Source: a virus
Lineage: Duplodnaviria > Caudoviricetes
Virus record (IMG/VR): IMGVR_UViG_3300020593_000066
Coordinates: 1 to 25,307 of that record
Direction: 5' to 3' (one strand)
Length of the DNA: 25,307 nt
Shown: positions 844 through 19,202 of the stretch, in pieces
How positions within the stretch are numbered: the stretch's first letter is position 1
How the letters are laid out: each line of letters starts with the position of its first letter
Made by a program: the position numbers and the translations under genes
The notes under the pieces: model-generated
Told to the model about the DNA's origin: nothing
The model's input: only the letters and a program-made list of their open reading frames with translations
Database searches by the model: none

Positions 844-1572
844 CTATGTGCTCCAATCCTCATGCGCCAGGGGCTCCGTGTTGAGCTCGTCACGAACGAT
901 CCGCCAATGCGGAAGCATCCGGTCCAGAAGGGCCACGAACTGCTCTGTGTGGTTGCGCTCAAAAAAATGGGCCAGCTCATGGACGATCACGTATTCGAGA
1001 CACTGCGGCGGCTTCTTGATCAGTTCGAGGTTCAACCAGACTCGACGTGCTTCGATATTGCAGGTGCCCCATTTGGTCTTCATCCGCTTGATGCCCCAGT
1101 TCGGCGTTGTGATACCGTATTCCGCCGCCCAGCGCTCCATTAGGGGTCGCGCTCGCGCACGAAGCTCTCGCCGGTACCAATTGAGGAACACCCGTTCTCG
1201 AATGGCCAGATCACTGTCATCGCGCACATGGAGATCGATTGTCTTGCTGTTGCGAATCCGAACCTGCCCAGCCCTGGCTCCCCCGATCAGGTTCAGTCGA
1301 TACCGTTGGCCCAGGAAGAAGTGGGTTTCACCTGATATATAGCGTCGCTCGGACTGGCGCGGCTGCGCCGCAAACTTGGCCTGCTGGCGCTTGATCCAGG
1401 CAAGGCGGGTGACAACAGCGAGCCGCACGGCCTCGTCGCCCATCTCTAGCGGCGCTGCAACACGGACCCGTCCGTGTGGCGGGTAGACCCCAAGGTGCAA
1501 GTTCTTGATCGGCTTGCGAACCACCTCCACCTCGAAGCCTCCCACGGACAGCTGGGCGGCGTCAGTACTCAT
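844..1572 (-). CDS. M48/YgjP (DUF45)-like zinc metallohydrolase associated with type I RM
   Basis: Has MKTKWGTCN and YVIVHELAH (HExxH) motifs and sits in the usual position after hsdR. The ATG at 1572 overlaps the hsdR 3' end. Confidence 0.9.
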   Translation of the reverse strand: MSTDAAQLSVGGFEVEVVRKPIKNLHLGVYPPHGRVRVAAPLEMGDEAVRLAVVTRLAWIKRQQAKFAAQPRQSERRYISGETHFFLGQRYRLNLIGGARAGQVRIRNSKTIDLHVRDDSDLAIRERVFLNWYRRELRARARPLMERWAAEYGITTPNWGIKRMKTKWGTCNIEARRVWLNLELIKKPPQCLEYVIVHELAHFFERNHTEQFVALLDRMLPHWRIVRDELNTEPLAHEDWST

Positions 1573-4500
1573 CCTGACTCCACACCAGTTCAAAGATCAC
1601 GTCGAGCTGCCCAGGGTCAGCTATGTGCTTCTTGATCGCGTTCCGCACCTCCTTTTCCTTGAACTTGTTGCCCCGCCACGAGTCCTTTTTGGTGAGGCGA
1701 ATTTCTTCGTCGATCGCCAAAGCCAGGGCCTCGTCTCCATCAAGATTATCGAAAAGCGCGCGCTTCGCCTTCGAATTCAGCGCGGCTGGATACGAGGCGG
1801 CCGTTTCGGCGCCTTGCGCTTTCTTCGTGAGATCGACAATTTGCGCGAGGTATTCTTGATAACTCAGTGCGTCCCGCTTGCGCTGCTCGATCAGGGCATC
1901 CAGGAGTTCGGACATCTTCTCATAGTATTTCGGATTGATCGGCGTCTCGTCGATGATCAGCTTCCGGACGTTGTTCTCGATCGTCTCCGCCACGGCTTCT
2001 GTGCTCTGACGAATGCCCTGGGGCAAGGCGTTGACCGCATCCGTCCCCCTCTCAACGATAAGCTGGATCAGCGAAACATCGTCAAAGGCCGAGATCACTT
2101 CGCTTTCTTCGGCGCGGATATAGGTGTCGATCAGGTGCCGCATCGCCGGCTCGTACATCTTCAGATCGATATAGTCACCGCTCGACAGCTTCACCTCATT
2201 CCGCACCTTCTCGAAGTGATCGACATCCGCCTTGATACTGGCGACCTCGACCTCGGAGTAGCCGGCCTCGCTCATCTCGTTTGCCACATCGGCGTAGGCG
2301 CGCAACAACGAGGCCACCAGCCGATAGAGGGTTAGCCGCTTCGGCTCATTCTCCTTCAGCGCCTCCTTGTCGGCCGTGTCCTTTGCACAGAAGAAGCGCT
2401 GGTAGGCGAGGGTATCGCGAGGCGGCTCGACCGGTTCACAGAGAGCCCGGACAGCTTCCAAGGCCTCGTCCAGCTTATCGCGCGCCTTTTCAAGCCGATC
2501 CGAAAGCAGGCCCGCTACATCCGCCTTGTCATAACCATCGAAGACCTCGGCCGTGTAGTCCTTGATCGAGGTCTCAAGGCTCTTGAAGAGGTCCTTGTAG
2601 TCGATGATGTAGCCGTATTCCTTGTCGTCTCCGTCCAGCCGGTTCACCCGGCAGATCGCCTGGAACAGGCCGTGGTCCTGCATCTTCTTGTCGATGTAGA
2701 GATACGTGGCCGAGGGGGCGTCAAAGCCGGTCAGCAGCTTGTCCACGACGATCAGCAGTTTCATCTGCCCTGGCTCATCGATGAACTTCCGCTTCGCCTC
2801 CTTCTCGAATGCCTCGGGCTCCTTGCCCCCCAACATCTTGTTGTAGATATCGTATTGTCGCAGGCGTTCCGTCAGCCCCTCGCCGCTTTCCTCGCCCTTT
2901 ATGTCGTTCGGCGACGGTTTGTAGGAGGTGACGATCGCGCACTTGCACGCCAGATCGGTCTTGTCGAACAGCTCAAAGAACTTGCACGCCTGATAGATGC
3001 TCGACGACACGAGCATGGCGTTGCCGCGGCCGCTTTGAAGCCGGTCCCGGGTCTCCATGTCCATCAGGATATCGGCCACGATCTTTTCCAGCCGCGACTG
3101 GCTGGACAGCACCTTCTGTAACGTGCCCCAGCGCTTCTTCAGCTGTGCCTTGGCCATATCGGTCAGGCCCTTGGTCTTGGCCTCGAACCATTTGTCGATC
3201 TTCGCCTGCGACGTGATGTTTTGATCGATATCCCGGGCCTCATAGCGCAGGTCAAGGACCACACCGTCCGACACCGCCTCGTCGAACTTGTAGGTATGGA
3301 TATATGGGCCGAACACTTCGAGGCTGGTCTGCTTGTCAGCCTTCAGCAGCGGCGTTCCGGTGAAGCCAATGAACATCGCGCTGGGCAGAATCGCCTTCAT
3401 CGCCTTGTGCAGATCGCCGCTCTGCGTGCGGTGGCACTCGTCAACGAAGACGAAGATGTCGCCCTTGGCCCGGAAATCCTTGGGCAGCGCGCTCTTCAAA
3501 TCCTCGACGTAACCTTCGACATCCGCGTCGCTGTCCTCCTTGCCGCCAAACTTGTGGATCAGCGAGCACAGCAGCCATGGGTTCGTGTCGTTCAGCCGGG
3601 CGATCAGATCGGCGCCGGATTTCGTGCGCAGAATTTCCTCGTTGACCCCGTTGAAGACCTTCTCGATCTGCTCGTCCAACTCAGTGCGATCGGTGATCAC
3701 CACCACCCGGCTGTCAGGCACGTTCTCGCGTATCCATTTGGCCAGCCATACCATCGTCAAGCTCTTGCCCGACCCTTGCGTGTGCCAGATGATCCCGCCT
3801 TCGCGTCGACGGATGTGGTCCTGCGCGGCGCGCACACCGAAATACTGGTTGTGGCGGCAGGTCTTCTTCACGCCGGCGTCGAACACCAGAAAATCGTGGA
3901 TCAGTTCAAGGAACCGTGGCTTGGCACACATCTGGACCAGCGCGCGGTCCAGGGGGTTTTCCGGCCCGCCTTCCTCTTTCCATGTTAGCCAGTACTTCTC
4001 GGGCGTCTCGATGACGCCATAGCGCAGCCCCTCGGTGTCGCTCCCCGCCATGATCAGCTGGATGGTGGTGAAGAACGGCTGGATGAATACCGGTTTCTGG
4101 TTGTCGAGGCTCTGCCGGATGCCTTGGGACACCGATACGGTCGAGCGCTTAAGTTCCAGCACGCCCAGCGCGATCCCGTTGACATAAATCACCACGTCCG
4201 GGCGCTTGCCGAAGGATTTGTCGCCCGCGGGCTTCACCGCGACCTCTTCGGCGATAGCGAAATGGTTGGCCGCAGGCTTCGCCCAATCGATCAGCCAGAC
4301 AGTGCGGGTCTGGTCGCCCACATCGGCCTTCACCTTCACCCCGTAGCGCAGCAGGTCATAGACCGCGCGATTGGTGTCGTAGAGGCTGCGAGACTGGTCG
4401 CTGGCCACCTTCGTCAGCTGCTGGATCGCGCGGGTGATCAGTTCGGGGGGATAACCCTGCCTTTCCAGGAAGGGGCGCAGATACTCGTCCTCAATGTTGC

Positions 4501-4627
4501 GGTTCGGGCGACCGATCTTGTCGGCGCGATCGATCCAGTTGCCGAGGTAGTCATAGCCCAGTGCGTTCCGAAACAGGTCGACAACGCGCTTCTGGGTTCT
4601 TCTCTCGATCTGGCCAACGGTGCTCAT
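1562..4627 (-). CDS. hsdR: Type I restriction endonuclease subunit R
   Basis: 1021 aa with nuclease motif RPDVVIYVNGIALGVLELK, Walker A HTQGSGKS, DECH box, FTGTP, LLTGFDAP and QAICRVNR. Confidence 0.97.
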   Translation of the reverse strand: MSTVGQIERRTQKRVVDLFRNALGYDYLGNWIDRADKIGRPNRNIEDEYLRPFLERQGYPPELITRAIQQLTKVASDQSRSLYDTNRAVYDLLRYGVKVKADVGDQTRTVWLIDWAKPAANHFAIAEEVAVKPAGDKSFGKRPDVVIYVNGIALGVLELKRSTVSVSQGIRQSLDNQKPVFIQPFFTTIQLIMAGSDTEGLRYGVIETPEKYWLTWKEEGGPENPLDRALVQMCAKPRFLELIHDFLVFDAGVKKTCRHNQYFGVRAAQDHIRRREGGIIWHTQGSGKSLTMVWLAKWIRENVPDSRVVVITDRTELDEQIEKVFNGVNEEILRTKSGADLIARLNDTNPWLLCSLIHKFGGKEDSDADVEGYVEDLKSALPKDFRAKGDIFVFVDECHRTQSGDLHKAMKAILPSAMFIGFTGTPLLKADKQTSLEVFGPYIHTYKFDEAVSDGVVLDLRYEARDIDQNITSQAKIDKWFEAKTKGLTDMAKAQLKKRWGTLQKVLSSQSRLEKIVADILMDMETRDRLQSGRGNAMLVSSSIYQACKFFELFDKTDLACKCAIVTSYKPSPNDIKGEESGEGLTERLRQYDIYNKMLGGKEPEAFEKEAKRKFIDEPGQMKLLIVVDKLLTGFDAPSATYLYIDKKMQDHGLFQAICRVNRLDGDDKEYGYIIDYKDLFKSLETSIKDYTAEVFDGYDKADVAGLLSDRLEKARDKLDEALEAVRALCEPVEPPRDTLAYQRFFCAKDTADKEALKENEPKRLTLYRLVASLLRAYADVANEMSEAGYSEVEVASIKADVDHFEKVRNEVKLSSGDYIDLKMYEPAMRHLIDTYIRAEESEVISAFDDVSLIQLIVERGTDAVNALPQGIRQSTEAVAETIENNVRKLIIDETPINPKYYEKMSELLDALIEQRKRDALSYQEYLAQIVDLTKKAQGAETAASYPAALNSKAKRALFDNLDGDEALALAIDEEIRLTKKDSWRGNKFKEKEVRNAIKKHIADPGQLDVIFELVWSQDEY

Positions 4628-4633
4628 CGTGAA

Positions 4634-5374
4634 CTATGCCTCAACAAAAACGCGGCGCGGCGCCCAGATCCAGCCTTCCGATGCCGGGGTGTCATCGGTC
4701 GGGGGTTCAAGGCGCTCGCGGTTCAAATGGAAGTCTCGGGCGATGCGGGCGCAGGCCTCGGCATCATGGATGTCTGCTTCGCGGCCGGTCTTCGGGATCG
4801 GTTCAGTTCCAACCTGCGGCCCGAGGCGGGCGCGGCAGAGCGACGGATAGGTTTCGATCACGGTCAGATGCGCGCCATCTGTCCAGATGCCGGTAGACAG
4901 GCGTTGTGGGGCAAAGCGGGCGACCACGTGCATCGCCTTCGTCGCCTGGCTGCCGATCATGTCCTTGATCGCCGACAGCGGCGTCACCCCTTCGGCCACC
5001 AGCCGCCGCTCTGTGTGCCGGAAAAGATAGGGGTTCGCTGCCGACCGACCGATCTGATCGACCGGGGTGCCATCCGCGATCATGCGGGCGAAGGCCTCGG
5101 GGAAACCGAGTGGCGCGTCGATGGCGAGCGTGGCACGCCAGGACTGGTCGGGCTTGTCCAGCTTGCAGAGCGCGAGCAGCGCGGCGAGGAAGTCTGCGGG
5201 CGTGGTTGCGCTGTTGATCGTCTCGCGCAGATTGCCGCGCCAGGGCTGGCAGAGGGTCTGACCCGCGTGATCCAGCACGACCAGCGCGTCGCGGCTGTTC
5301 GGATTCTTGTCGCAGTTCCAGCCGCCGACATCCCAGCCGATGAACAGACGCTCGTGATGGTCGTTACTCACCAT
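4634..5374 (-). CDS. DUF429-like predicted nuclease (RNase H-like fold)
   Basis: 246 aa with FIGWDVGGW, AIDAPLGFP, FRHTER, IETYP and a C-terminal EGWIW, the pattern I recognise for DUF429. A GAGG RBS lies upstream. Confidence 0.78.
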   Translation of the reverse strand: MVSNDHHERLFIGWDVGGWNCDKNPNSRDALVVLDHAGQTLCQPWRGNLRETINSATTPADFLAALLALCKLDKPDQSWRATLAIDAPLGFPEAFARMIADGTPVDQIGRSAANPYLFRHTERRLVAEGVTPLSAIKDMIGSQATKAMHVVARFAPQRLSTGIWTDGAHLTVIETYPSLCRARLGPQVGTEPIPKTGREADIHDAEACARIARDFHLNRERLEPPTDDTPASEGWIWAPRRVFVEA

Positions 5375-5382
5375 TCAGCGCC

Positions 5383-5796
5383 TCACGAATTCATCAAGTC
5401 GACCGCGGCGACGATCTTGGAGATCTGCAGCGATGCCGATGTCCTCTCAGGGCCGACTGCGAAAACGAAGTCAGCCGGATAGTCCTTCGGCAACCAGTCG
5501 AGTTCATCGTTTTCCGCCAGCTCGACGTCGATCCACCGCCCGTCGTCTGAAAGCGCCGTAACCCGCTTAATCACGACCATCTTTCCGGCCTCTGTCAGCA
5601 GCCCGAAGGTCCAATGATCGGTCATCATTCTGGATGTGTACCAGGCTGGCAGAACCTCAGCGGCCGCGCCCGCGTCGGTTAGCATGGCGATCTTCTTCCG
5701 CGTGTTCTGCCACTCCCGCCAAGAGAAGTAGGCGGCCGCCCAGCCGGAGAGACCTCCGAAGACAACCAGCGCATCGACGACCCAACCGAAGCTCAT
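5383..5796 (-). CDS. Hypothetical protein with one N-terminal hydrophobic (membrane-anchor-like) segment
   Basis: 137 aa. ATGA overlap with the hsdS stop and an 8-nt gap to the next gene. Residues ~3-26 are hydrophobic and followed by basic residues (RKK). Confidence 0.8.
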   Translation of the reverse strand: MSFGWVVDALVVFGGLSGWAAAYFSWREWQNTRKKIAMLTDAGAAAEVLPAWYTSRMMTDHWTFGLLTEAGKMVVIKRVTALSDDGRWIDVELAENDELDWLPKDYPADFVFAVGPERTSASLQISKIVAAVDLMNS

Positions 5797-7067
5797 ACCA
5801 GCCGCACCTTACCGGTCAGCAGATTCTGCATCATGCCCTGCTTGATGGTGTGGGCCTTTTCGACCTCGGCTTCCAGCGCGGCGAGTTCTGCGTCCATGTC
5901 GGAGAGGATTTCGGCAATTGCGGTTTGCTCGACAATCTCGGGAAACAAGCCTTCAATTTTTACAAGTGTGGGCGGCCGAACTTCGAAGATGGTGCTGCCC
6001 TGTGCTTTTGACAAAAGTAACGGTCTGTTCAACGAAAACCAGTATTTCATAAATTGAACATGAGCCGAGCGAGGATCAAAGACGATGCCACAAATTCCCT
6101 GCTTTGTGGCAACTGGAATTCGGGCAACTCCAACCTCGCCAATAGTTGCACCCGTCGACAGTATCAAAGTGCCTGCAGGCCAAAGCTTCGCTGAGCAGCG
6201 AGCGAGCCCGGCCTCCGAGAGTGAATTCTTCGTTGTCCAGATTTCGGGCTTTATGTCGTCGATCACCACCCAGTGAACCCCACCGCCAAAATTCTGGAGA
6301 TTCGATGTCGCTGGGGTACCTCCATCACCAATCGCGCTTATCAAGTCCCCCAGCGGCTTCACCTCCCACTCGCCCGAGAAGCCCGGCAGGCGGGTTTTGC
6401 CGGTGAGGAGCTGTTGCATGGCGGCCTGCTTAATGTCGCGCTTCTTGGCAATCAGCGCCTCCAACGCCGCAATCCGCGCATCCGCATCCGAGAGCGCGTC
6501 TGCGATGGCGTTTTGTTCAACGATCCTCCTCGGCAAGACAACGCGGAGCATCCGCTGGGCCGTGATCCCAATATAGCTTCGAGTTCCGCCACCCGACAGT
6601 AGTTTAAGGTGCTCTTGGAAAATGCTACCGTTAAAGTAGTGGAAGAGATAATCGCGACTGATCTTTTCAGGCATCCGAACGCGATAGAAGGTAACTTGAG
6701 GTGTCAGCATAATGTAGTCGAAGGGAATTTTCCCTACGATCGCTGTTTCCCCAATAGTTGCCTTGTGCGTTAAAAGAATGTCTCCACTTCGCGCAAAACC
6801 TTTCTGGAGGCTGTCAGCCTGCTTCCGCGATATGTGAGGGCACGTATCTAGGTCCAGCACCCCCTGATACACATGATTTGCCATTACAAATGGCACCCCA
6901 AAGTCCACGAAATCAGAAGACTTCGGATGTATTGCACCGTGGTTGCCATCCATAGGTTTCTCGATGACTCCTGACATAACTAAGTCATCAACCAACAATA
7001 CATCCCAATCCTCGGGGACCAGTCCGATGTCGGTCTGCTTGTAGCCCGGCCTGATCTTCTCCTGCAT
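5793..7067 (-). CDS. hsdS: Type I RM specificity subunit S
   Basis: Starts MQEKIRPGYKQTDIGLVPEDW (alternative GTG at 7073 overlaps the hsdM stop). Two TRDs, each followed by the conserved EQxAIAxxLSDxD...KQxxMQxLLTGKxRL helix. Confidence 0.95.
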   Translation of the reverse strand: MQEKIRPGYKQTDIGLVPEDWDVLLVDDLVMSGVIEKPMDGNHGAIHPKSSDFVDFGVPFVMANHVYQGVLDLDTCPHISRKQADSLQKGFARSGDILLTHKATIGETAIVGKIPFDYIMLTPQVTFYRVRMPEKISRDYLFHYFNGSIFQEHLKLLSGGGTRSYIGITAQRMLRVVLPRRIVEQNAIADALSDADARIAALEALIAKKRDIKQAAMQQLLTGKTRLPGFSGEWEVKPLGDLISAIGDGGTPATSNLQNFGGGVHWVVIDDIKPEIWTTKNSLSEAGLARCSAKLWPAGTLILSTGATIGEVGVARIPVATKQGICGIVFDPRSAHVQFMKYWFSLNRPLLLSKAQGSTIFEVRPPTLVKIEGLFPEIVEQTAIAEILSDMDAELAALEAEVEKAHTIKQGMMQNLLTGKVRLV

Positions 7068-7069
7068 CG

Positions 7070-9523
7070 TCACGCGGCGAACCCCATCCGTTTCAGATGC
7101 CCGGCGACCTTCGCGCCCAGCGCCTGCGCGCGATCCTCCAGCACCAGCAACGGCGCGGCATAGCGTTCGGTCAGCAGCTTCACCCGCCCGGCCAGCGCCT
7201 GGCTGACGCGATCGACCTCGGCCGCCACATCGCCCTGCACCCGGGCCAGCCACTTGTCCTTGACGATCAGCGCCTTCACCTGATCCTCGGTCAGCTTGGC
7301 GTAGTGCCTGACCGTGGCCTCATCCAGCGCCGCCTGCGCCTCCTTCATCGCCTTGGCCGCGGCCGCCTCGGTCTCGATCAGCCGCAGCGCCTGCTTGAGC
7401 ATGGCGATCTCCTCGGCCGCATCGCGGTCGTGACGGATGTCCTTGATCCGGTCCTTGATCGACTTCGCGGTTAGCTTGCCTTTTTCCGTCTTGGCGTCGG
7501 CCAGCAGCCCATCCTCGCCGCCCTGCTCCTCGTCCAATTCCTCTATCGCGCGGGCAGCCTCCTCGGCCTTGGCTTCCAGCGCCTCCAACGCGGCCTTTTC
7601 GGCCGCGAAGAACCGGTCCACGATCAGCGCGGGCGGGATCAGTTCGGCCTTCAGCTTGCGCCGGCCCAGCGTGATGTCGGGCGTCTCGGTGAACTTGCCC
7701 TCGGCGTTCTTGACCAGTTCGCGGATCACACGCCCGGCCTTCCAGCCATCCTGCACGAGGATATAGACATCGTCCTGCATGACCTCAGACCAGTAGGTCA
7801 TGAGGTGCTGATACACGTCATAGCCATCGATCAGCGGCACGGGCTTGAAGCGGTCCAGCAGATCCTCGGAGATCACGTGGATCAAGTCCTTCGGCTTGTC
7901 GCCGATTGCGATACCCCGCAGCCGGTCGATATGCGCCGCGCGCCAGGCGTCGAACACCGCGGTGACGGTATCGGCATAGGCGGCGAATTCGGCATGGTTC
8001 ATGATCGCGGGCTTGACCTCGGCTGCCTCGACCTTGGGCGTCAGATAGCCGGGCCGGTCACCGGGGGCGAAGATGTCGTGGCGCACGGCGGGCATGACCT
8101 GCCAAAAGCCCTCCAGTGCATCGACATCGCGCACCGGGATGCCGCCCTTCAAGTGCGCCTCGATATCCTGAAGGTCCTCCGGTTCTGAGGCGTCGATGTA
8201 GCGGGGAATGTTGAGGTTGAAGTCGTTCTTCTCGATCTCAGCCAGCGGGACCATCCGCGAGTATTTGTCGATCTGCGTCTGCTTGGTGAAGGCGTCGACG
8301 ATCTTGTGGATGTCCTGGCTGCGCAGGCGGTTCTTGTTGCCGTCTTTCACGAATCCCTTGGAGGCGTCGATCATGAAGATGCCGGTGCGGGCCTGGGCAT
8401 GCTCCTTGTCCAGCACCACGATGCAGGCAGGAATGCCAGTACCGTAGAACAGGTTGGCCGGCAGGCCGATGATCCCCTTGATGTAGCCGCGCTTGACGAT
8501 CCAGCGGCGCAGCGTGGACTCGGCGTTGCCGCGGAAGAGGACGCCGTGGGGCAGAATGACGGCGCCCTTGCCCGTCGATTTCAGAGAGGCGATCACGTGG
8601 AGAAGATAGGCGAAATCGCCGTTCTTCTCGGGCGGGCGCTCGCCTTCGACCATGAAGCGGGCGGTCAGGTTGGTCTTGCTCTCGTCGAACACGCCGGTCG
8701 ACCATGCCTTGTCCGAGAAGGGCGGATTGGCGACCACGTAGTCGAAGGTCTTCAGGCTGCCGTCAGCGTTCAGGAAGTGTGGGGATGAAAGCGTGTTTCC
8801 CTTCCAGATTTCCGCGGTCGGACAATCGTGCAGGACCATGTTCATCTTCGCGAGCGCGCGGGTGGCGACGTCCTTTTCCTGGCCATAGATCGTAAGATCA
8901 TAGGGCGCCTCGTCATGCGCCTTCAAAAGCAGTGAGCCGGAACCGCAAGTGGGATCGTAGATCGTCTGGTCGGCGCTGCGCGCGGCACCGATCCCGATCA
9001 CCTTGGCCATGATCCGCGACACCTCGGACGGGGTGTAGAACTGCCCCTTGCTCTTGCCCGACTCGGTGGCGAAATGGCGCATCAGGTATTCGTAGGCATC
9101 GCCCAGAATATCGTCGCCATCGGCGCGGTTCTTGCGAAAATCCAGCTCCGGGCGATTGAAGATCGCGACAAGGTTTGAGAGGCGATCAACCATCTCTTTG
9201 CCGGTGCCGAGCTTCTCCGGGTCGTTGAAGTCGGCAACGTCGATCACGCCCTTGAGGTCGTTCGCCTCGGCCAGGTTGGCGATGATGATGTTGATCTTCT
9301 CGCCGATGTCCTTATTGCCGCGCAGCGCGACCATGTCCGCAAAACTGCCGTCTTCGGGGATTTCGATCAGCCCATCCGGGTCCCCGGAATACTTGTCGGA
9401 GACGTACTTCACGAACAGCAATACAAGGACATAATCCTTGTATTGCGAGGCATCCATTCCGCCCCGAAGCGCATCGCAGCTCGCCCAGAGAGAGCTGTAA
9501 ATTTCCGACTTTTTGACTGCCAT
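7070..9523 (-). CDS. hsdM: Type I RM methyltransferase subunit M (m6A) with a long C-terminal helical extension
   Basis: 817 aa with LWASCDALRGGMD, GQFYTP, motif I YDPTCGSGSLL, motif IV NPPF and FNLNIPRYID. Confidence 0.97.
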   Translation of the reverse strand: MAVKKSEIYSSLWASCDALRGGMDASQYKDYVLVLLFVKYVSDKYSGDPDGLIEIPEDGSFADMVALRGNKDIGEKINIIIANLAEANDLKGVIDVADFNDPEKLGTGKEMVDRLSNLVAIFNRPELDFRKNRADGDDILGDAYEYLMRHFATESGKSKGQFYTPSEVSRIMAKVIGIGAARSADQTIYDPTCGSGSLLLKAHDEAPYDLTIYGQEKDVATRALAKMNMVLHDCPTAEIWKGNTLSSPHFLNADGSLKTFDYVVANPPFSDKAWSTGVFDESKTNLTARFMVEGERPPEKNGDFAYLLHVIASLKSTGKGAVILPHGVLFRGNAESTLRRWIVKRGYIKGIIGLPANLFYGTGIPACIVVLDKEHAQARTGIFMIDASKGFVKDGNKNRLRSQDIHKIVDAFTKQTQIDKYSRMVPLAEIEKNDFNLNIPRYIDASEPEDLQDIEAHLKGGIPVRDVDALEGFWQVMPAVRHDIFAPGDRPGYLTPKVEAAEVKPAIMNHAEFAAYADTVTAVFDAWRAAHIDRLRGIAIGDKPKDLIHVISEDLLDRFKPVPLIDGYDVYQHLMTYWSEVMQDDVYILVQDGWKAGRVIRELVKNAEGKFTETPDITLGRRKLKAELIPPALIVDRFFAAEKAALEALEAKAEEAARAIEELDEEQGGEDGLLADAKTEKGKLTAKSIKDRIKDIRHDRDAAEEIAMLKQALRLIETEAAAAKAMKEAQAALDEATVRHYAKLTEDQVKALIVKDKWLARVQGDVAAEVDRVSQALAGRVKLLTERYAAPLLVLEDRAQALGAKVAGHLKRMGFAA

Positions 9524-9535
9524 GTGGTCCTCGTT

Positions 9536-9730
9536 CTACTCTTTGGTGCGATCCGCAGCCTGTGAGGCGTTCCGACCTGCCTCTATAGTCTTCAATCGCT
9601 CGTATTCTTCAATCGCCATCACCACGACGACTTGCCGCCCATGCTTGGCCACGGCCACCGGTTCAGCTCGGGCGAGATCAATCAGCCGGCCAAAGCCGTA
9701 CTTCGCGTCTTTCGCGCTCAGGGTCTGCAT
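9536..9730 (-). CDS. Phd/YefM-family antitoxin-like DNA-binding protein (no adjacent toxin)
   Basis: 64 aa MQTLSAKDAKYGFGRLIDLARAEPVAVAKHGRQVVVVMAIEEYERL. GGAG RBS upstream; ends 12 nt before hsdM. Confidence 0.88.
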   Translation of the reverse strand: MQTLSAKDAKYGFGRLIDLARAEPVAVAKHGRQVVVVMAIEEYERLKTIEAGRNASQAADRTKE

Positions 9731-9744
9731 CTCACTCTCCGCCC

Positions 9745-9786
9745 TTGGCCTTGTGTATTTTTGGCCAATTTGGCCCAATGAAGCAA
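9745..9786 (-). promoter_or_regulatory. Putative promoter/operator of the phd-hsd operon
   Basis: TTGGCC at 9745, 9761 and 9770, including the inverted repeat GGCCAA-T-TTGGCC (9763-9775). Minus-strand TTGCTT (-35-like) and AAAAAT (-10-like) bracket the IR. Confidence 0.5.
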
Positions 9787-14515: not shown

Positions 14516-15408
14516 GCTCCTTGCGTCGTCGAGGGGTTGGGTGCGGTGGCGGCCGCGGGCAAATCGAAGTTCAGGCGAGCTGCGCCATCGGGGCGCGGAC
14601 CGCGGATCTTCGTCATGAGCCGCCCGAGATGGGCGGGCTCGATCATCGACAGCCGCCCGCTGCGGTCCTTGGCCGGCAGGCCGAAATCGTTGATGGTGGT
14701 GCAGATGAAGGCGCGGAACGCCTCGCCCTTCTCGGGGCGTAACTCGGTCAGGGTGATGACCTCGTCGACGATGCCGGGCAGTTCGATCCCGGTCTTCGAG
14801 CCCTCGATCTGCATCGAGAAGAAGGGCTTGCCGAAATCGTCCAGCTTGCGGTCCAGCAGCCCGACCAGCCAGATGTTCTTGGCGGGCGTGTGCTGCAGAT
14901 GCGTGAGCCAGCCGATCATCTCCTGGCCGAGCAACCCGTAGGTCGCGCGGAGATCCGGCTTGCCGGTGCGGTCGGATTGGGCTTGGGATTGACCCTTGCA
15001 CCACTGAAGGCAAATGCGAGAGGCGACGGAGATGCTGTCGACGAAGACGGTGTCGTATTTGTCGAGCTGGGTGGCGGGGCCGAAGGCGGCGCAAACCCGT
15101 GCGAAGTGCCCGGGCGCATAGGACTGGTCGTCCCGCATCGCCGGGTTGGCGCCGCCGATCCAGGCCGCGAGATCGCGGGCGACCTCCCAATCGCGGATGC
15201 GGATCTCGTCGCCGGGCCAGCCCTGAACGGCCAGCTCGCCCGCCTCGAGGTTCAGGAAGAGCGTGCGCTGCGGATCAAGGGTCAGCAGCTGCGTGGTCTT
15301 GCCGATGCCGGAGGTGCCCGTGAGCACCCCCTTGATGCCGCGCGCCTCGCGCAGGCGTTCGTCGGCCGTGATGATGCGGAGCGGCCCGCCGCCGAAGGGG
15401 GCGCTCAC
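14512..15408 (-). CDS. AAA_24/Sak4-like P-loop ATPase (phage single-strand annealing protein)
   Basis: 298 aa with Walker A GTSGIGKT, Walker B VFVDS and a C-terminal PAKDRSG. Confidence 0.85.
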   Translation of the reverse strand: MSAPFGGGPLRIITADERLREARGIKGVLTGTSGIGKTTQLLTLDPQRTLFLNLEAGELAVQGWPGDEIRIRDWEVARDLAAWIGGANPAMRDDQSYAPGHFARVCAAFGPATQLDKYDTVFVDSISVASRICLQWCKGQSQAQSDRTGKPDLRATYGLLGQEMIGWLTHLQHTPAKNIWLVGLLDRKLDDFGKPFFSMQIEGSKTGIELPGIVDEVITLTELRPEKGEAFRAFICTTINDFGLPAKDRSGRLSMIEPAHLGRLMTKIRGPRPDGAARLNFDLPAAATAPNPSTTQGA

Positions 15409-15698
15409 TTGCGGCCCTCCAGATCCCGCACAGCGGCCGAAATGGCGATGTCCGCACCACAGGCGCCCTGGCGGCGCGCCATCTTCAACACGTCGCCAAG
15501 CGCGCTCGTCAGCCGGTAGAGCTCGGATTGCTGCCGCGCCAGAGCGACAAGCGCGAACTCGATGTCGTCCACAGTGGCGCGCTCGATCGGCACCGCGCGG
15601 TTCGCCCTCTCAGACAGGGCCGGAACGTTGATCGTGTCGGGGATCGCCTCCATCCAGCTCGACTGGCGCAGGCGTTTCAGGGGGGAAGTCGTGAACAT
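15405..15698 (-). CDS. Hypothetical protein, first gene of the leftward early operon
   Basis: 97 aa with a GGAG RBS upstream and a GTGA overlap with the ATPase start. Confidence 0.75.
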   Translation of the reverse strand: MFTTSPLKRLRQSSWMEAIPDTINVPALSERANRAVPIERATVDDIEFALVALARQQSELYRLTSALGDVLKMARRQGACGADIAISAAVRDLEGRK

Positions 15699-15752
15699 GG
15701 TGATGCTCCGTGTTTTCGTCGGTTGGTGTCCAGGGATCGTCGGGAAGACTGC

Positions 15753-15834
15753 TGCCGGGCCTGACGCCGCCCTGGAGCTTGCGGTCGGAGTGTTTCCCCG
15801 CGTGGGGGTGTTGCATTCCTCCGAGGGCCCGGCA
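15753..15834 (-). ncRNA. Candidate structured leader/antisense RNA (three-way junction)
   Basis: 9-bp closing stem (15753-15761/15826-15834), 6-bp stem (15785-15790/15819-15824) capped by a 4-bp C/G hairpin, and a 4-bp stem (15767-15770/15781-15784) with the loop AAGCUCCAGG. Confidence 0.55.
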
Positions 15835-15870: not shown

Positions 15871-15901
15871 TCACCTACCGGCGAGCCTCCGAGACTGTCG
15901 G
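15871..15901 (-). promoter_or_regulatory. Putative alternative-sigma promoter, copy 1 (leftward operon)
   Basis: Minus strand reads CCGACAGTC-TCGGAGGCTC-GCCGGTAGGTGA, with the same boxes and spacing as 19069-19099. Confidence 0.65.
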
Positions 15902-16486
15902 GGCGGTGCCGAGATATGCCGCGAGATCAAGCGCCTCGGCCGCCTTCCGGATGGTGGCGAGCCGCGCGTAGACGGTGCTCCTATGGATCCCGAGGGCTTC
16001 GGCCGCTTCCGTCGGCGACATGTCGATCAGCGCCAGCGCGAGGGCGCGGCAGGTCGGGGTCAGGCCAGCAAGGAGCCGCTGGACGTCCCGGACCAGCCCG
16101 AACGCCTCGTCTGGTGCGCGTGTGACGGCGGCATGCGGCATCACGCTGTCGGGCAGCGTTTCCGCGAGCGGCAGCATCTCGTCATCACCGCGCCCCTCGG
16201 CGGGACTGTCGAAGTCGATCCAAGTCCGCTCGGCCCGCAGCCGTTCGGTCGGCGCGGCCAGCGTGGCGATGCGGTTCGCCAGAACGCGGTCGGCGAAGGT
16301 GTCGTACTGACCGCGGGAAGGATCGAACTTCCCGTCCCGGCGATAGAGGTGCAGCCGCAGGTCCTGCTTGATGTCCTCGGCGTCCATTCCGGGGACGGAG
16401 CCCGAGCGGGCCAGCCGTTCGGCGCGAATGGTGATGTTACGGGAGACGCGCGAGTGCGCGTCGCAAATGAGGTGGAAACGCTCCAT
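15875..16486 (-). CDS. ECF-like sigma-70 family factor
   Basis: 203 aa with region 2-like DAEDIKQDLRLHLY...FDPSRGQYDTFADRVLANRI and region 4-like LTPTCR...SPTEAAEALGIHRSTVYARLATIRK. Confidence 0.8.
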   Translation of the reverse strand: MERFHLICDAHSRVSRNITIRAERLARSGSVPGMDAEDIKQDLRLHLYRRDGKFDPSRGQYDTFADRVLANRIATLAAPTERLRAERTWIDFDSPAEGRGDDEMLPLAETLPDSVMPHAAVTRAPDEAFGLVRDVQRLLAGLTPTCRALALALIDMSPTEAAEALGIHRSTVYARLATIRKAAEALDLAAYLGTAPTVSEARR

Positions 16487-16580
16487 GAAGTTTCGCCTTC
16501 GTCCAGGTGGACGGGCACGCGGCCCGAGTGCCTGGCACCGGCGAAAATTCGTTGGAGGGCCTCGAAATCAGGGGGATCGG

Positions 16581-16650: not shown

Positions 16651-17808
16651 TCAGTCGTCGTCGACGAAATTTCGGTCGCGCTGGTCAGCGCGACCCTGAC
16701 GCAGCGCACTTGCATCGACAAGGAAGCGTGCCGCGTAACAATCGTCCTCGGCCGTGAACGGATCGTCGACGATCCCGAACTGCGCCCTCAGCGCGGCGGC
16801 GAGAAGCTGGCGCTGCCGATCGTAACCGCGCTCAAACTCCCCCAGGATTGCGACCACGTCGCGCGAAGGACGACGTCCCTTGATGGTGGAGATCGGAAAG
16901 GACCGAGGCAATGCCCCGCCAAGCGCGGCACAAGCAAGGAGCAGCCGCCACTGGCGGTTCGGCCTGCCGTTCCGCTCATCCCGCATGCCGATCTGGTCCG
17001 GTTCAAGGCGCGCCGGAGCCTGCCCAAGATAGCTGACGTTGAGCACGGCCTCCTCGCGAAACGCGAAGCGCAGATCGGACCAGCGGGCATTTGCAGGCAG
17101 AGTCATCACCGGACGCCGGACGACGTCACCTGCGTCCGTCAGCGCCGCGATCTCGGGCGCGAAGAGATCGACAAGTGGCATGGCAGCGACGAATCCCTTG
17201 CGCGGTGGGGGGGCGAAGTCGAGGCATTCGGCCCACGTCAGAACACGCCCTCGCCGGGCCGCAAGAAAGGCCGGAACGTCCGGGTCAATCGCGCCGAGCG
17301 ATGTCACCAGCAGGACGAATGGCAGATTGCGACGATCGAGGTCGAGGACGTCTGCCCGGCCGAGCGGCGCGCCCGGGCTTGTGAGCGCAGCGAACACCGG
17401 AAAACTCCGGCCGGCGGCAATGGCATGATCGCCGATGTGCAGAAGGACCGCCCCGCGCGAAGGCGCGGTGGGAACGACAAGGCCAAGCGCCGTGGCAATG
17501 TCGGCGAACAGCCTGCGGCGGTCGAGTTCACGGATGCGGATATCGTCGGGATTGATGTCGAGGGTTTCGCAGAGTCGCCCCGGATCGCTGCAGACGGCAC
17601 GGACCAAGCCGCCGGCATGCCGCACGACGTGGCGCGGGCAATGCTCCCCGCCGGGCCAGGGACAGTCGATACGTTCTGCGTACTTGGAGGTTTCCGGAAG
17701 GTAGCGTTCGACCAGGGTCCAGCAATCGATCAAGTCGACCTTCCAGTCGAGCGTGTCGGTCGCATGACCGGGGACGCGCTCAATCGTCCTCCAGAACGCC
17801 GACGTCAT
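16651..17808 (-). CDS. Hypothetical protein with N-terminal four-Cys motif and possible C-terminal winged-helix DNA-binding domain
   Basis: 385-388 aa (ATG at 17808 or 17817), overlapping the upstream gene end. Contains CPWPGGEHC...AVCSDPGRLC. The C-terminus QWRLLLACAA...LAAALRAQFGIVDDPF...YAARF is reminiscent of wHTH effector domains (inference). Confidence 0.75.
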   Translation of the reverse strand: MTSAFWRTIERVPGHATDTLDWKVDLIDCWTLVERYLPETSKYAERIDCPWPGGEHCPRHVVRHAGGLVRAVCSDPGRLCETLDINPDDIRIRELDRRRLFADIATALGLVVPTAPSRGAVLLHIGDHAIAAGRSFPVFAALTSPGAPLGRADVLDLDRRNLPFVLLVTSLGAIDPDVPAFLAARRGRVLTWAECLDFAPPPRKGFVAAMPLVDLFAPEIAALTDAGDVVRRPVMTLPANARWSDLRFAFREEAVLNVSYLGQAPARLEPDQIGMRDERNGRPNRQWRLLLACAALGGALPRSFPISTIKGRRPSRDVVAILGEFERGYDRQRQLLAAALRAQFGIVDDPFTAEDDCYAARFLVDASALRQGRADQRDRNFVDDD

Positions 17809-18970
17809 CGTCCTCATCTCCGACGTTGGGGCGGCAGAAGCCCTGATCCTTGAGCCAGCGGTCGATCAGATCGCTGTCGGCATCACGGTCGTAGCGTGCG
17901 AGGCTCGGCGGGAGAATGGCAACCGTCCGCTCCTTGCCGTCTCCATCGAACTTGACCTTGAAAACGGCCCGGTCGATGGAACCGCCCGCAAGGCGCCGCT
18001 CCCAATTGTCGTCCCAGGCCATGAAGAGGTCGTTCGCCTTGCGCACCTCCTTCTCCTTGGCCTTTCCGCCCCAGAAGCGTTCGATTTCGATCAGGCGCAC
18101 CTTGACGATCTCGGAGACAGTGTCGTTGTCGAGCGATTTCTCGCCCTTCTCCAGCAGCGGATCGAGGGTGAAGCGGTTCGAGCGATCGAAGTATTCCTCG
18201 TCCCCGAAGATGACCCCGCCGAACGTCCGCAGGTAGAGCTCGGTTTCGCCTTTCGTCCCTGCATTGACGGCAAGTTCGTCAGACTCGCCGTCATAGATGA
18301 CGACGTCGTGCTTCTGCGGTCGGTAGTAGGCGATTCCCGATCCGCCATCATCCTGATGTCGCCCCTCGCGCCGCATCGGTTCGCCATGCCGGACCATGAA
18401 CCATGTCTTCGTGCCGCGCGGAAAAGCGAATACCCGTGAGCCCTTGCCACGGCGCTTGCGGTCGAACCACTCGTCCATCCGCTCCTGCATGATCGCGGTC
18501 TGTTCGACGGTCGGATCCGGAGCCGGTCGCGGCTTGCCGCTGTGGCCCGCGAAGTAGATGAAACGCGAACGTGTGAATGCCACGGTCTCGGCATGCTGAC
18601 GTCGCAGCAGATCAGGTTTCTGGAGCCAGATCTGCAGGGCGATGTCCGCATCGGATGGTTCCTCACCGGCCTCGATCGTGAGGCCAGCCCGTCCTGCCGC
18701 CTCGATCAGCTCCTCGGCGGTTTCCTTGGTCGCGGTCTCGTGCACGTAGAAAAGGGCGTCGACCATTTCGGGCGGCACGTTTTCGTCGGGCTTCATCAAC
18801 ACTGCAGCAAGATCGTCGTAGGGAAAATCCTCATCCGCTTCGACCGGAAGTTCAAAACCCCGCGCCGAAAAATATTCCGCCCACGTCGCGAAGAACTTCA
18901 GAAGGTGCTTCGGCGAAATGCTCTTGAGGCGATCAGGGTTGGTGAAGCTTCTCGGGTTGAATGACGCCAT
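17780..18970 (-). CDS. Hypothetical protein (396 aa), first gene of the regulatory cassette
   Basis: Long ORF with natural protein composition, GGAG RBS and a sigma70-like promoter upstream. I recognise no catalytic motif. Confidence 0.85.
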   Translation of the reverse strand: MASFNPRSFTNPDRLKSISPKHLLKFFATWAEYFSARGFELPVEADEDFPYDDLAAVLMKPDENVPPEMVDALFYVHETATKETAEELIEAAGRAGLTIEAGEEPSDADIALQIWLQKPDLLRRQHAETVAFTRSRFIYFAGHSGKPRPAPDPTVEQTAIMQERMDEWFDRKRRGKGSRVFAFPRGTKTWFMVRHGEPMRREGRHQDDGGSGIAYYRPQKHDVVIYDGESDELAVNAGTKGETELYLRTFGGVIFGDEEYFDRSNRFTLDPLLEKGEKSLDNDTVSEIVKVRLIEIERFWGGKAKEKEVRKANDLFMAWDDNWERRLAGGSIDRAVFKVKFDGDGKERTVAILPPSLARYDRDADSDLIDRWLKDQGFCRPNVGDEDDDVGVLEDD

Positions 18971-19006
18971 GCGCGACTCGGCTCCAGGGTGAATCGGGGA
19001 AAGTTC

Positions 19007-19035
19007 AGTCTATCGGCAGAGTTGTGAACGCACAA
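19007..19035 (-). promoter_or_regulatory. Sigma70-type promoter for the 396-aa/385-aa genes
   Basis: Minus strand TTGTGC-N17-TAGACT. The palindrome TTGTG-AACG-CACAA (19022-19035) overlaps the -35. Confidence 0.65.
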
Positions 19036-19041
19036 GTCCAT

Positions 19042-19068: not shown

Positions 19069-19099
19069 CCGACAGTCAGAACAGTCAGCCGGTAGGTGA
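19069..19099 (+). promoter_or_regulatory. Putative alternative-sigma promoter, copy 2 (rightward operon)
   Basis: CCGACAGTC-AGAACAGTCA-GCCGGTAGGTGA. Confidence 0.65.
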
Positions 19100-19121
19100 G
19101 GAGAGCATCTGGAGCTCTCCC

Positions 19122-19202
19122 ATGACCACAATCCCCTTCGCGCGCCGCGCTGACATCCATCCATGCCCGCATGCGGCCCCGGCACATGAGGGCTGCGCAT
19201 GA
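19122..19202 (+). CDS. Possible 26-aa leader ORF
   Basis: MTTIPFARRADIHPCPHAAPAHEGCA*. GGAG lies 7 nt before the ATG, and the stop overlaps the next start (ATGA). Confidence 0.45.
   Translation: MTTIPFARRADIHPCPHAAPAHEGCA

Follow-up and report, generated by a model that had tools for sequence, protein, structure and literature searches.

Genetic organization of the element

The window analysed here, a stretch of 25,307 nucleotides, is part of a prophage-like element with close relatives in named Alphaproteobacteria. The leftward genes encode a sigma-70-like factor (15875..16486, minus strand; phrog_1740), a protein of 97 amino acids, a Sak4-like AAA_24 protein, phrog_2300, a helicase, a DUF2924 protein and a serine recombinase, beyond which, on the leftward side, lies a type I restriction cluster. 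The rightward genes encode DUF6511, a Cas4-like nuclease, a primase, a RuvC-like protein and an HNH protein, and between the two sets lie genes for proteins of 396 and 388 amino acids, both of unknown function. The 97-aa gene (15405..15698, minus strand), which is the first of the leftward operon, belongs to phrog_36009, of unknown function, and atlas look-ups with the 97-aa and 396-aa proteins returned no function.

The rightward operon has a leader ORF of 26 amino acids (19122..19202, plus strand), whose stop codon overlaps the start codon of DUF6511 (ATGA), followed by the genes for the Cas4-like nuclease, the primase and the RuvC-like protein. The same overlap is present in 44 of 67 distinct leaders. 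We note that the leader ORF is 23–31 codons long, or about 60 codons in one clade, and that its sequence drifts with the DUF6511 overlap retained.

The 396-aa and 388-aa genes (16651-18970, minus strand) fall into no Pfam or PHROG family. They range from about 30% to 100% identity among elements whose flanking genes are more than 90% identical, which suggests a module open to exchange; a sigma-70-like promoter was identified by eye at about 19008-19036, and there is a terminator at 16621-16590. The type I restriction-modification cluster (844-9778, minus strand), which includes a YgjP-like peptidase, adjoins the recombinase end of the element. Two unannotated genes separate hsdS from hsdR, and the cluster also has a Phd/YefM antitoxin gene for which no adjacent toxin partner was recognised.

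Among annotated phages, AcaML1 (55%) and Wolbachia WO (about 50%) give the best matches to the AAA_24 protein. Recombinase genes lie near the AAA_24 gene in AcaML1, as they do in the element of the window, and in Wolbachia WOVitA1 a sigma gene directly precedes the AAA_24 gene. By sequence comparison, the prophage family that bears the RNA described below is related to AcaML1 and Wolbachia WO. The RNA model R1 gave no match in 17 kb (AcaML1) and 15 kb (WO) around AAA_24, one region each (best score 11.8 bits).

Both operon leaders carry a promoter-like motif, CCGACAG-N13-CCGGTAGGTGA, of which the window contains exactly two copies against 0.04 expected. The leftward copy (15871..15901, minus strand) overlaps the end of the sigma gene, and the second (19069..19099, plus strand) heads the rightward operon. 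The motif precedes 79 of 93 RNAs of the loop types A, A′ and B defined below, and none of the seven of types C and D; the six mapped C/D loci gave no sigma match, and the gene preceding type C is, from the look of its sequence, presumably a small AlpA/Xis-type HTH protein. Because the motif and the sigma gene co-occur, it is likely that the element-encoded sigma factor reads the motif of both operons. This co-occurrence extends down to about 25% sigma identity, making the two a candidate phage sigma/promoter pair. A generic sigma-70 promoter scan gave no result.

Structure and conservation of the junction RNA

The leader of the leftward operon contains an RNA of 82 nucleotides (15753..15834, minus strand, as are all its parts). 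It consists of a stalk, P1 (15834-15826 paired with 15761-15753); a second stem, P2 (15824-15819 with 15790-15785), which has a conserved A-rich internal loop and a CCC/GGG tip; and a third stem, P3 (15784-15781 with 15770-15767). The loop of P3, AAGCUCCAGG (15771..15780), is the variable antisense strand and has the anti-SD core CUCC. A single-stranded bulge, CGUC (15763..15766), provides a second antisense strand, and is invariant in all 35 homologues of its own lineage.

An earlier note, written from the sequence alone, had proposed this three-way junction, and the fold, with a predicted energy of −37.8 kcal/mol, is indeed kept in homologues. The energy by itself is unexceptional (z −1.6; 12 of 200 shuffled sequences are equally stable), and we accept the structure because of the comparison with homologues rather than the folding energy. 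In an alignment of 35 distinct homologues, from which two of 37 RNAs were excluded (one for a deletion and one for an N), 98.7% of 770 cells pair. Two-sided changes are found at two of the 22 pairs (15 cells), both in P2, and a distant loop type has both-sided changes in P1 as well as P2. P3 is invariant, and covariation therefore gives it no support of its own. The single-sequence fold closes part of the P3 loop, whereas the consensus fold keeps 10 nucleotides open. On the comparative evidence, we regard the junction as almost certainly a real structure.

Conservation is concentrated in the RNA. Mean column conservation over 82 distinct type-A sequences is 0.90 in the RNA and 0.95 in its 3′ arm, against 0.61 in the 40 nucleotides upstream and 0.60 between the downstream sites. 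The search pattern matched in 125 of 136 redundant loci with a sigma factor at least 40% identical; three of the others hold the RNA on inspection, seven end before it, and one is broken inside the sigma gene. Cultured carriers include Paracoccus versutus DSM 582 (L012) and Amaricoccus macauensis DSM 101730 (L008). The stalk pattern occurs in 4 of 401 genomes sampled at class level and 6 of 401 at order level, the seed genome being counted in each. When applied to 27 regions around DUF6511 or Rfam matches, R1 found the RNA in only three elements and in sRNA-Xcc1 members, and most of the sampled DUF6511 elements therefore lack it. A blastn search of annotated phages and plasmids with the leader gave no result. 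Contigs from RNA libraries (4 of 24 listed runs) cover the locus patchily and cannot display RNA ends; one of them, X6, spans parts of the 396-aa and sigma genes, and may reflect DNA carry-over.

The stalk is followed by GCAG or variants of it in 35 of 35 homologues, and none of these 35 has after the stalk the tRNA-like 3′ CCA end that is a requirement for RNase P processing. RNase P substrates are treated in passages of PMC5499578.

Probable two-part pairing with the downstream leader

Recognition appears to be bipartite, involving the bulge CGUC and the loop sequence CUCCAGG. The first downstream site, D1 (15729..15741, minus strand), has the sequence GACG-AT-CCCTGGA, lies 11 nucleotides past the stalk and is single copy in the window; it complements the bulge and the loop in the correct order. 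Its CCCUGGA (15729-15735) was one of four loop complements listed in the earlier note, and turns out to be the best target of the four and to covary with the loop. The second site, D2 (15706..15720, minus strand), has the form GACG-N7-GGAG and lies over the ribosome-binding site (RBS) of the 97-aa gene. The note had overlooked D2 at this RBS, the role of the bulge as an antisense strand, and the Rfam link considered below.

The loci are redundant, and counts are therefore given by distinct sequences or clusters; since the sequences are related, these counts overstate independence. Five loop types were distinguished (A, A′, B, C and D), and in every type the helix is longest with the cognate D1: 6.1 bp for A, 6.0 for A′, 10.8 for B, 4.0 for C and 5.0 for D, compared to 2.6–4.6 bp off the diagonal, although for type C the margin is small (4.0 against 3.3–4.0 bp in its own row). 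The comparison covers 78 of 81 distinct pairs of loop and leader, three unclassified pairs being excluded, and the table of loop types omits three loci that contain N and five matches to the pattern that were judged false on inspection. In type B the entire loop is replaced, and D1 has turned into its 8–12 bp complement. GAC[GA] stands just 5′ of the D1 helix in 72 of the 78. Uncompensated exceptions occur in L112 and L115 (loop against D1) and in L417. From this concerted variation, the loop and bulge very probably pair with D1.

At D2, 42 of 48 type-A leaders have GACG at 2–12 nucleotides ahead of the GGAG that belongs to the 97-aa gene, compared to 7 of 65 host RBSs, a background that is limited to these 65, crudely called from 13 regions of four genomes. 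The corresponding counts are 0 of 8 for type B and 1 of 5 for type C. We consider repression at D2 reasonably likely. Whole-arm duplex energies place D1 at the 54th, D2 at the 71st and the rightward site at the 40th percentile of the background; they do not separate targets from background and so are not used as support.

We also observed that in six loci (L383, L326, L332, L364, L348 and L363) the RNA, D1 and D2 form a module whose upstream gene varies (sigma, small HTH or unknown ORF), and which always lies before the 97-aa/AAA_24 operon.

The covariation fits action in cis or in trans, and repression or activation, equally well. The leader could work solely in cis, by adopting either the junction or a long hairpin that pairs D1 with both loop and bulge, thereby freeing or hiding the RBS with no trans-acting RNA; a protein bound to the A-rich internal loop, which is conserved, would perhaps set the choice. 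Predicted energies in the window are −54.7 kcal/mol for the D1-paired fold and −53.2 kcal/mol for the junction, and the two folds lie within 5 kcal/mol of each other in 17 of 20 representatives, a count that has no shuffled control. The short and steady linker between stalk and D1 (8–14 nucleotides) and the lack of a CCA end also suit such a switch. We nevertheless think it unlikely, because specificity-type variation of loop and bulge and a closed stalk are features shared with the trans-acting c4 and CI RNAs, as portrayed in passages of PMC5320573 and PMC4825925, and because a cis switch does not explain why the rightward transcript, a separate one described below, retains CUGGAG.

Relationship to sRNA-Xcc1, c4 and CI RNAs

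A search against Rfam, as the earlier note had proposed, gave a single match in the window: sRNA-Xcc1 (RF02221), at 30.7 bits and E 0.099, with model positions 1–87 aligned, which does not reach the gathering cut-off of 53 bits. The c4 families did not match; C4, c4-a1b1 and isrK gave nothing in the window at E ≤ 1. RNAs of types A, B and C score 30.8–42.9 bits against RF02221, with type B at 41–43 bits. The link is reciprocal, in that R1 detects, at 32.2 bits and E 1.3e-4, an sRNA-Xcc1 member that passes the Rfam cut-off. A pattern made of the stalk and internal loop returns this lineage together with a wider set of RNAs, and 7 of the 10 wider RNAs tested exceed the sRNA-Xcc1 cut-off. Judged by these scores, the RNA is a sub-threshold homologue of sRNA-Xcc1, and not a formal member. 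The suggestion of a possibly undescribed RNA repressor is accordingly half right: the lineage is new, but it is a distant relative of sRNA-Xcc1 rather than an unrelated new class.

The RNA shares with sRNA-Xcc1 the junction, the A-rich internal loop, the CCC/GGG tip and the rule that bulge and loop together specify the target. It differs in having the bulge CGUC, tandem downstream sites and no upstream site, and in the Sak4/helicase/recombinase operon behind it. In passages of PMC12189769 and of two preprints, sRNA-Xcc1 appears as an sRNA controlled by HrpG/HrpX or found in vesicles, and is placed upstream of a symE or ORF6N gene; it is also covered in part of PMC3531072.

The same pairing rule extends to these wider relatives. 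In 25 clusters with other bulges, a cognate two-part complement is found downstream in 19, against 50 of 600 non-cognate combinations; it usually ends at or beside the GGAG of the next gene, and the bulge varies with the downstream site. Core sRNA-Xcc1 members have a complement upstream in 22 of 33 cases (146 of 1056 non-cognate) and downstream in 24 of 33 (149 of 1056), the downstream count including some stalk self-matches. A further lineage, represented by L627 and L661, has a different P3 and tandem GAC..GGAGC sites in the 60 nucleotides after the RNA match. It has no Rfam match at E ≤ 0.5, and in L627 the lineage RNA lies upstream of a 97-aa homologue.

The downstream target of c4 and CI RNAs is labelled a2b2 or seqC. 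Measured against these RNAs, the closed stalk with a three-stem junction is present, as are two single-stranded regions that vary with a bipartite target, the evidence for the bulge coming from wider relatives only. A downstream target over the next RBS is present at D2, with no compensatory change at D2 itself. An upstream target (a1b1 or seqA) is not conserved: it was found in 4 of 25 clusters of wider relatives, against 56 of 600 non-cognate combinations, and in none of the lineage alignments. The analogy to c4 and CI drawn in the earlier note gains support from the loop/target covariation.

In the c4 scheme, one loop occludes the RBS and the other binds just upstream (PMC5320573, in part). 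As far as passages of that paper describe P1/P7 c4, it resembles the RNA here in its three stems, its two antisense strands (for the RBS and just upstream), its variable specificity region, and its encoding within a leader under its own control. Compared to P1/P7 c4 (RF01695, C4; RF03163, c4-a1b1), the RNA here lacks an a1b1-type upstream target and the CCA end; processed c4 starts with GGW, whereas the stalk here does not; and the gene that follows, encoding the 97-aa protein, matches no recognised antirepressor or icd. The likeness to P4 CI, from passages of PMC4825925 and PMC3632133, lies in the derivation from a leader, the downstream complementary site and the operon of replication genes. 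It differs from P4 CI in that the seqA/IsrK-like upstream element is absent and the promoter is apparently dependent on the phage sigma factor.

A second alternative is that the RNA is an activator in trans resembling IsrK, whose binding to D1 would open a hairpin that hides the RBS, and so give positive feedback after induction. IsrK works in such a manner (passages of PMC4825925), the 3′ end of D1 begins a predicted RBS hairpin in some clades (L093, L383), and the position of the RNA behind a promoter that appears to depend on the phage sigma factor means that it may be made on induction. Two observations make us regard activation as improbable: the single target of the wider relatives ends on or beside GGAG, which fits occlusion, and no strong hairpin over the RBS is predicted at D2 in the window.

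We note that one locus, L504 (383-696, plus strand), has sRNA-Xcc1, isrK/c4-a1b1 and C4 in tandem in one leader, so that two antisense systems are stacked; the same tandem is tabulated for Xylella in a part of PMC12189769. Titles and passages of the literature, including PMC2864571, contained neither this lineage nor a link between sRNA-Xcc1 and c4-type targets; Chen 2011 and the supplement of PMC5737381, which may describe c4-2, lie outside that scope and could bear on novelty. What is new is the RNA lineage, its replication-operon context and its tandem, downstream-only targets.

Other candidate targets of the loop

The other three complementary sites lie at 19109-19116 (plus strand), 18981-18989 (minus strand) and 16502-16507 (minus strand), and all four have the positions and strands given in the earlier note. 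Its caution about chance matches is also justified, as CCTGGA occurs 16 times in the window against 13.35 expected, and CTGGAGC 6 times against 5.25. The general claim, in which RBSs of the element's key genes are the targets of the loop, is well supported for the downstream leader, plausible for the rightward operon, weak for the 396-aa gene and rejected for the sigma gene.

The rightward site is in a hairpin, GGAGAGC-ATCTGGA-GCTCTCC (19100..19120, plus strand), which carries the RBS in its loop, and is a candidate for pairing in trans. It comes directly after the promoter motif and before the 26-aa leader ORF that is coupled to DUF6511. Of 34 distinct leaders, 29 have CTGGAG, as do 11 of the 13 clusters, against 3 of 65 in the host background; 8 of the 13 clusters have a hairpin around it, with differing stem sequences. 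The extended SD consensus favours purines where this site has CT. All other mapped loop types occur in elements that have DUF6511 in the same operon as the RNA. The site is conserved but uncompensated: L043, L082, L086, L092, L121 and L443 have mismatches with no matching change. The site has no complement to the bulge, and its duplex with the loop is not extreme, 6% of host RBSs being equally strong or stronger. We consider the rightward leader a plausible but somewhat doubtful target.

The RBS of the 396-aa gene (18981..18989, minus strand) has the reported 9-nucleotide match, and gives the strongest loop duplex in the window (−20.0, below all 65 host RBSs). The match is mostly unconserved, with CTGGAG in 6 of 30 leader clusters; GACG..GGAG occurs in 17 of 30, against 7 of 65 host RBSs, and the window's own site lacks GACG. 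We regard the 396-aa gene as a weak candidate, and unlikely to be a target. The site upstream of the sigma gene fares worse. The sigma gene has a separate structured leader (16487..16548, minus strand; z −3.9), in which a stem pairs the CCTGGA at 16502-16507, and the site is rejected as a target because it is buried in this way. In 2 of 8 leader clusters it is the form that most sequences have, and it is absent in clades with the same loop, while the sigma RBS of type-B elements has CTGGAG in 7 of 7 cases despite their different loop. That the sigma gene is a target is very improbable.

As a separate observation, the sigma leader is conserved, a UUUCGCC/GGCGAAA stalk in it covers the likely RBS, and the stems of the inner hairpin are swapped in other clades; this leader may be the real induction switch.

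A broad anti-SD regulator of the kind that the earlier note proposed, repressing at least four genes of the element including sigma and the 396-aa gene, would accommodate the 396-aa RBS as the best duplex in the window and the frequency of GACG..GGAG in its leaders, yet is about as improbable as activation in view of the rarity of CTGGAG in those leaders, the missing GACG in the window copy, the stem-paired sigma site and its absence in clades with the same loop, and the CTGGAG retained by type B under a different loop.

Discussion

The reading that we prefer is that the RNA is an antisense repressor of the c4/CI type, directed at the RBS of the first gene of the leftward recombination/replication operon, and by sequence comparison and analogy this is probably correct. 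The loop changes in step with the downstream site, and the RNA therefore probably silences the next genes by base pairing. Repression and trans action are suggested by the family analogy and by the RBS-overlapping targets of the relatives; on this analogy we lean slightly towards action in trans.

On the proposed mechanism, the element's sigma factor would start both operons at their common motif. The RNA would be cut out of the leftward leader and accumulate. On newly made transcripts its bulge and loop would then clamp D1 and D2, so that the 97-aa gene would no longer be translated and the genes behind it would be silenced by polarity. Less surely, the loop would pair with the CUGGAG in the rightward hairpin loop, and so shut the coupled DUF6511-Cas4-primase operon. 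The outcome would be a delayed shut-off favouring lysogeny.

We tentatively raise the further idea, which we think has less than an even chance of being right, that one leader RNA is the off-switch of a sigma-driven circuit, closing two divergent operons with the same promoter: its own through the tandem sites for bulge and loop, and the replication operon through a loop–loop contact with the RBS hairpin. A second target on the rightward side would account for a loop that hardly changes in two-operon elements and has drifted (types B, C and D) where DUF6511 is in the same operon.

These results offer a concrete control mechanism that lends itself to testing, in an alphaproteobacterial prophage family which is common yet unstudied, and extend the logic of c4 and CI to a sub-threshold branch of sRNA-Xcc1. 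The natural loop/target pairs of types A–D are ready-made compensatory swaps, and possibly immunity groups. The results also add to the evidence that sRNA-Xcc1, treated in print as a virulence sRNA, is a phage-type antisense module. If true, the two-operon off-switch would represent RNA-based control of lysogeny in a prophage family related to WO and AcaML1.
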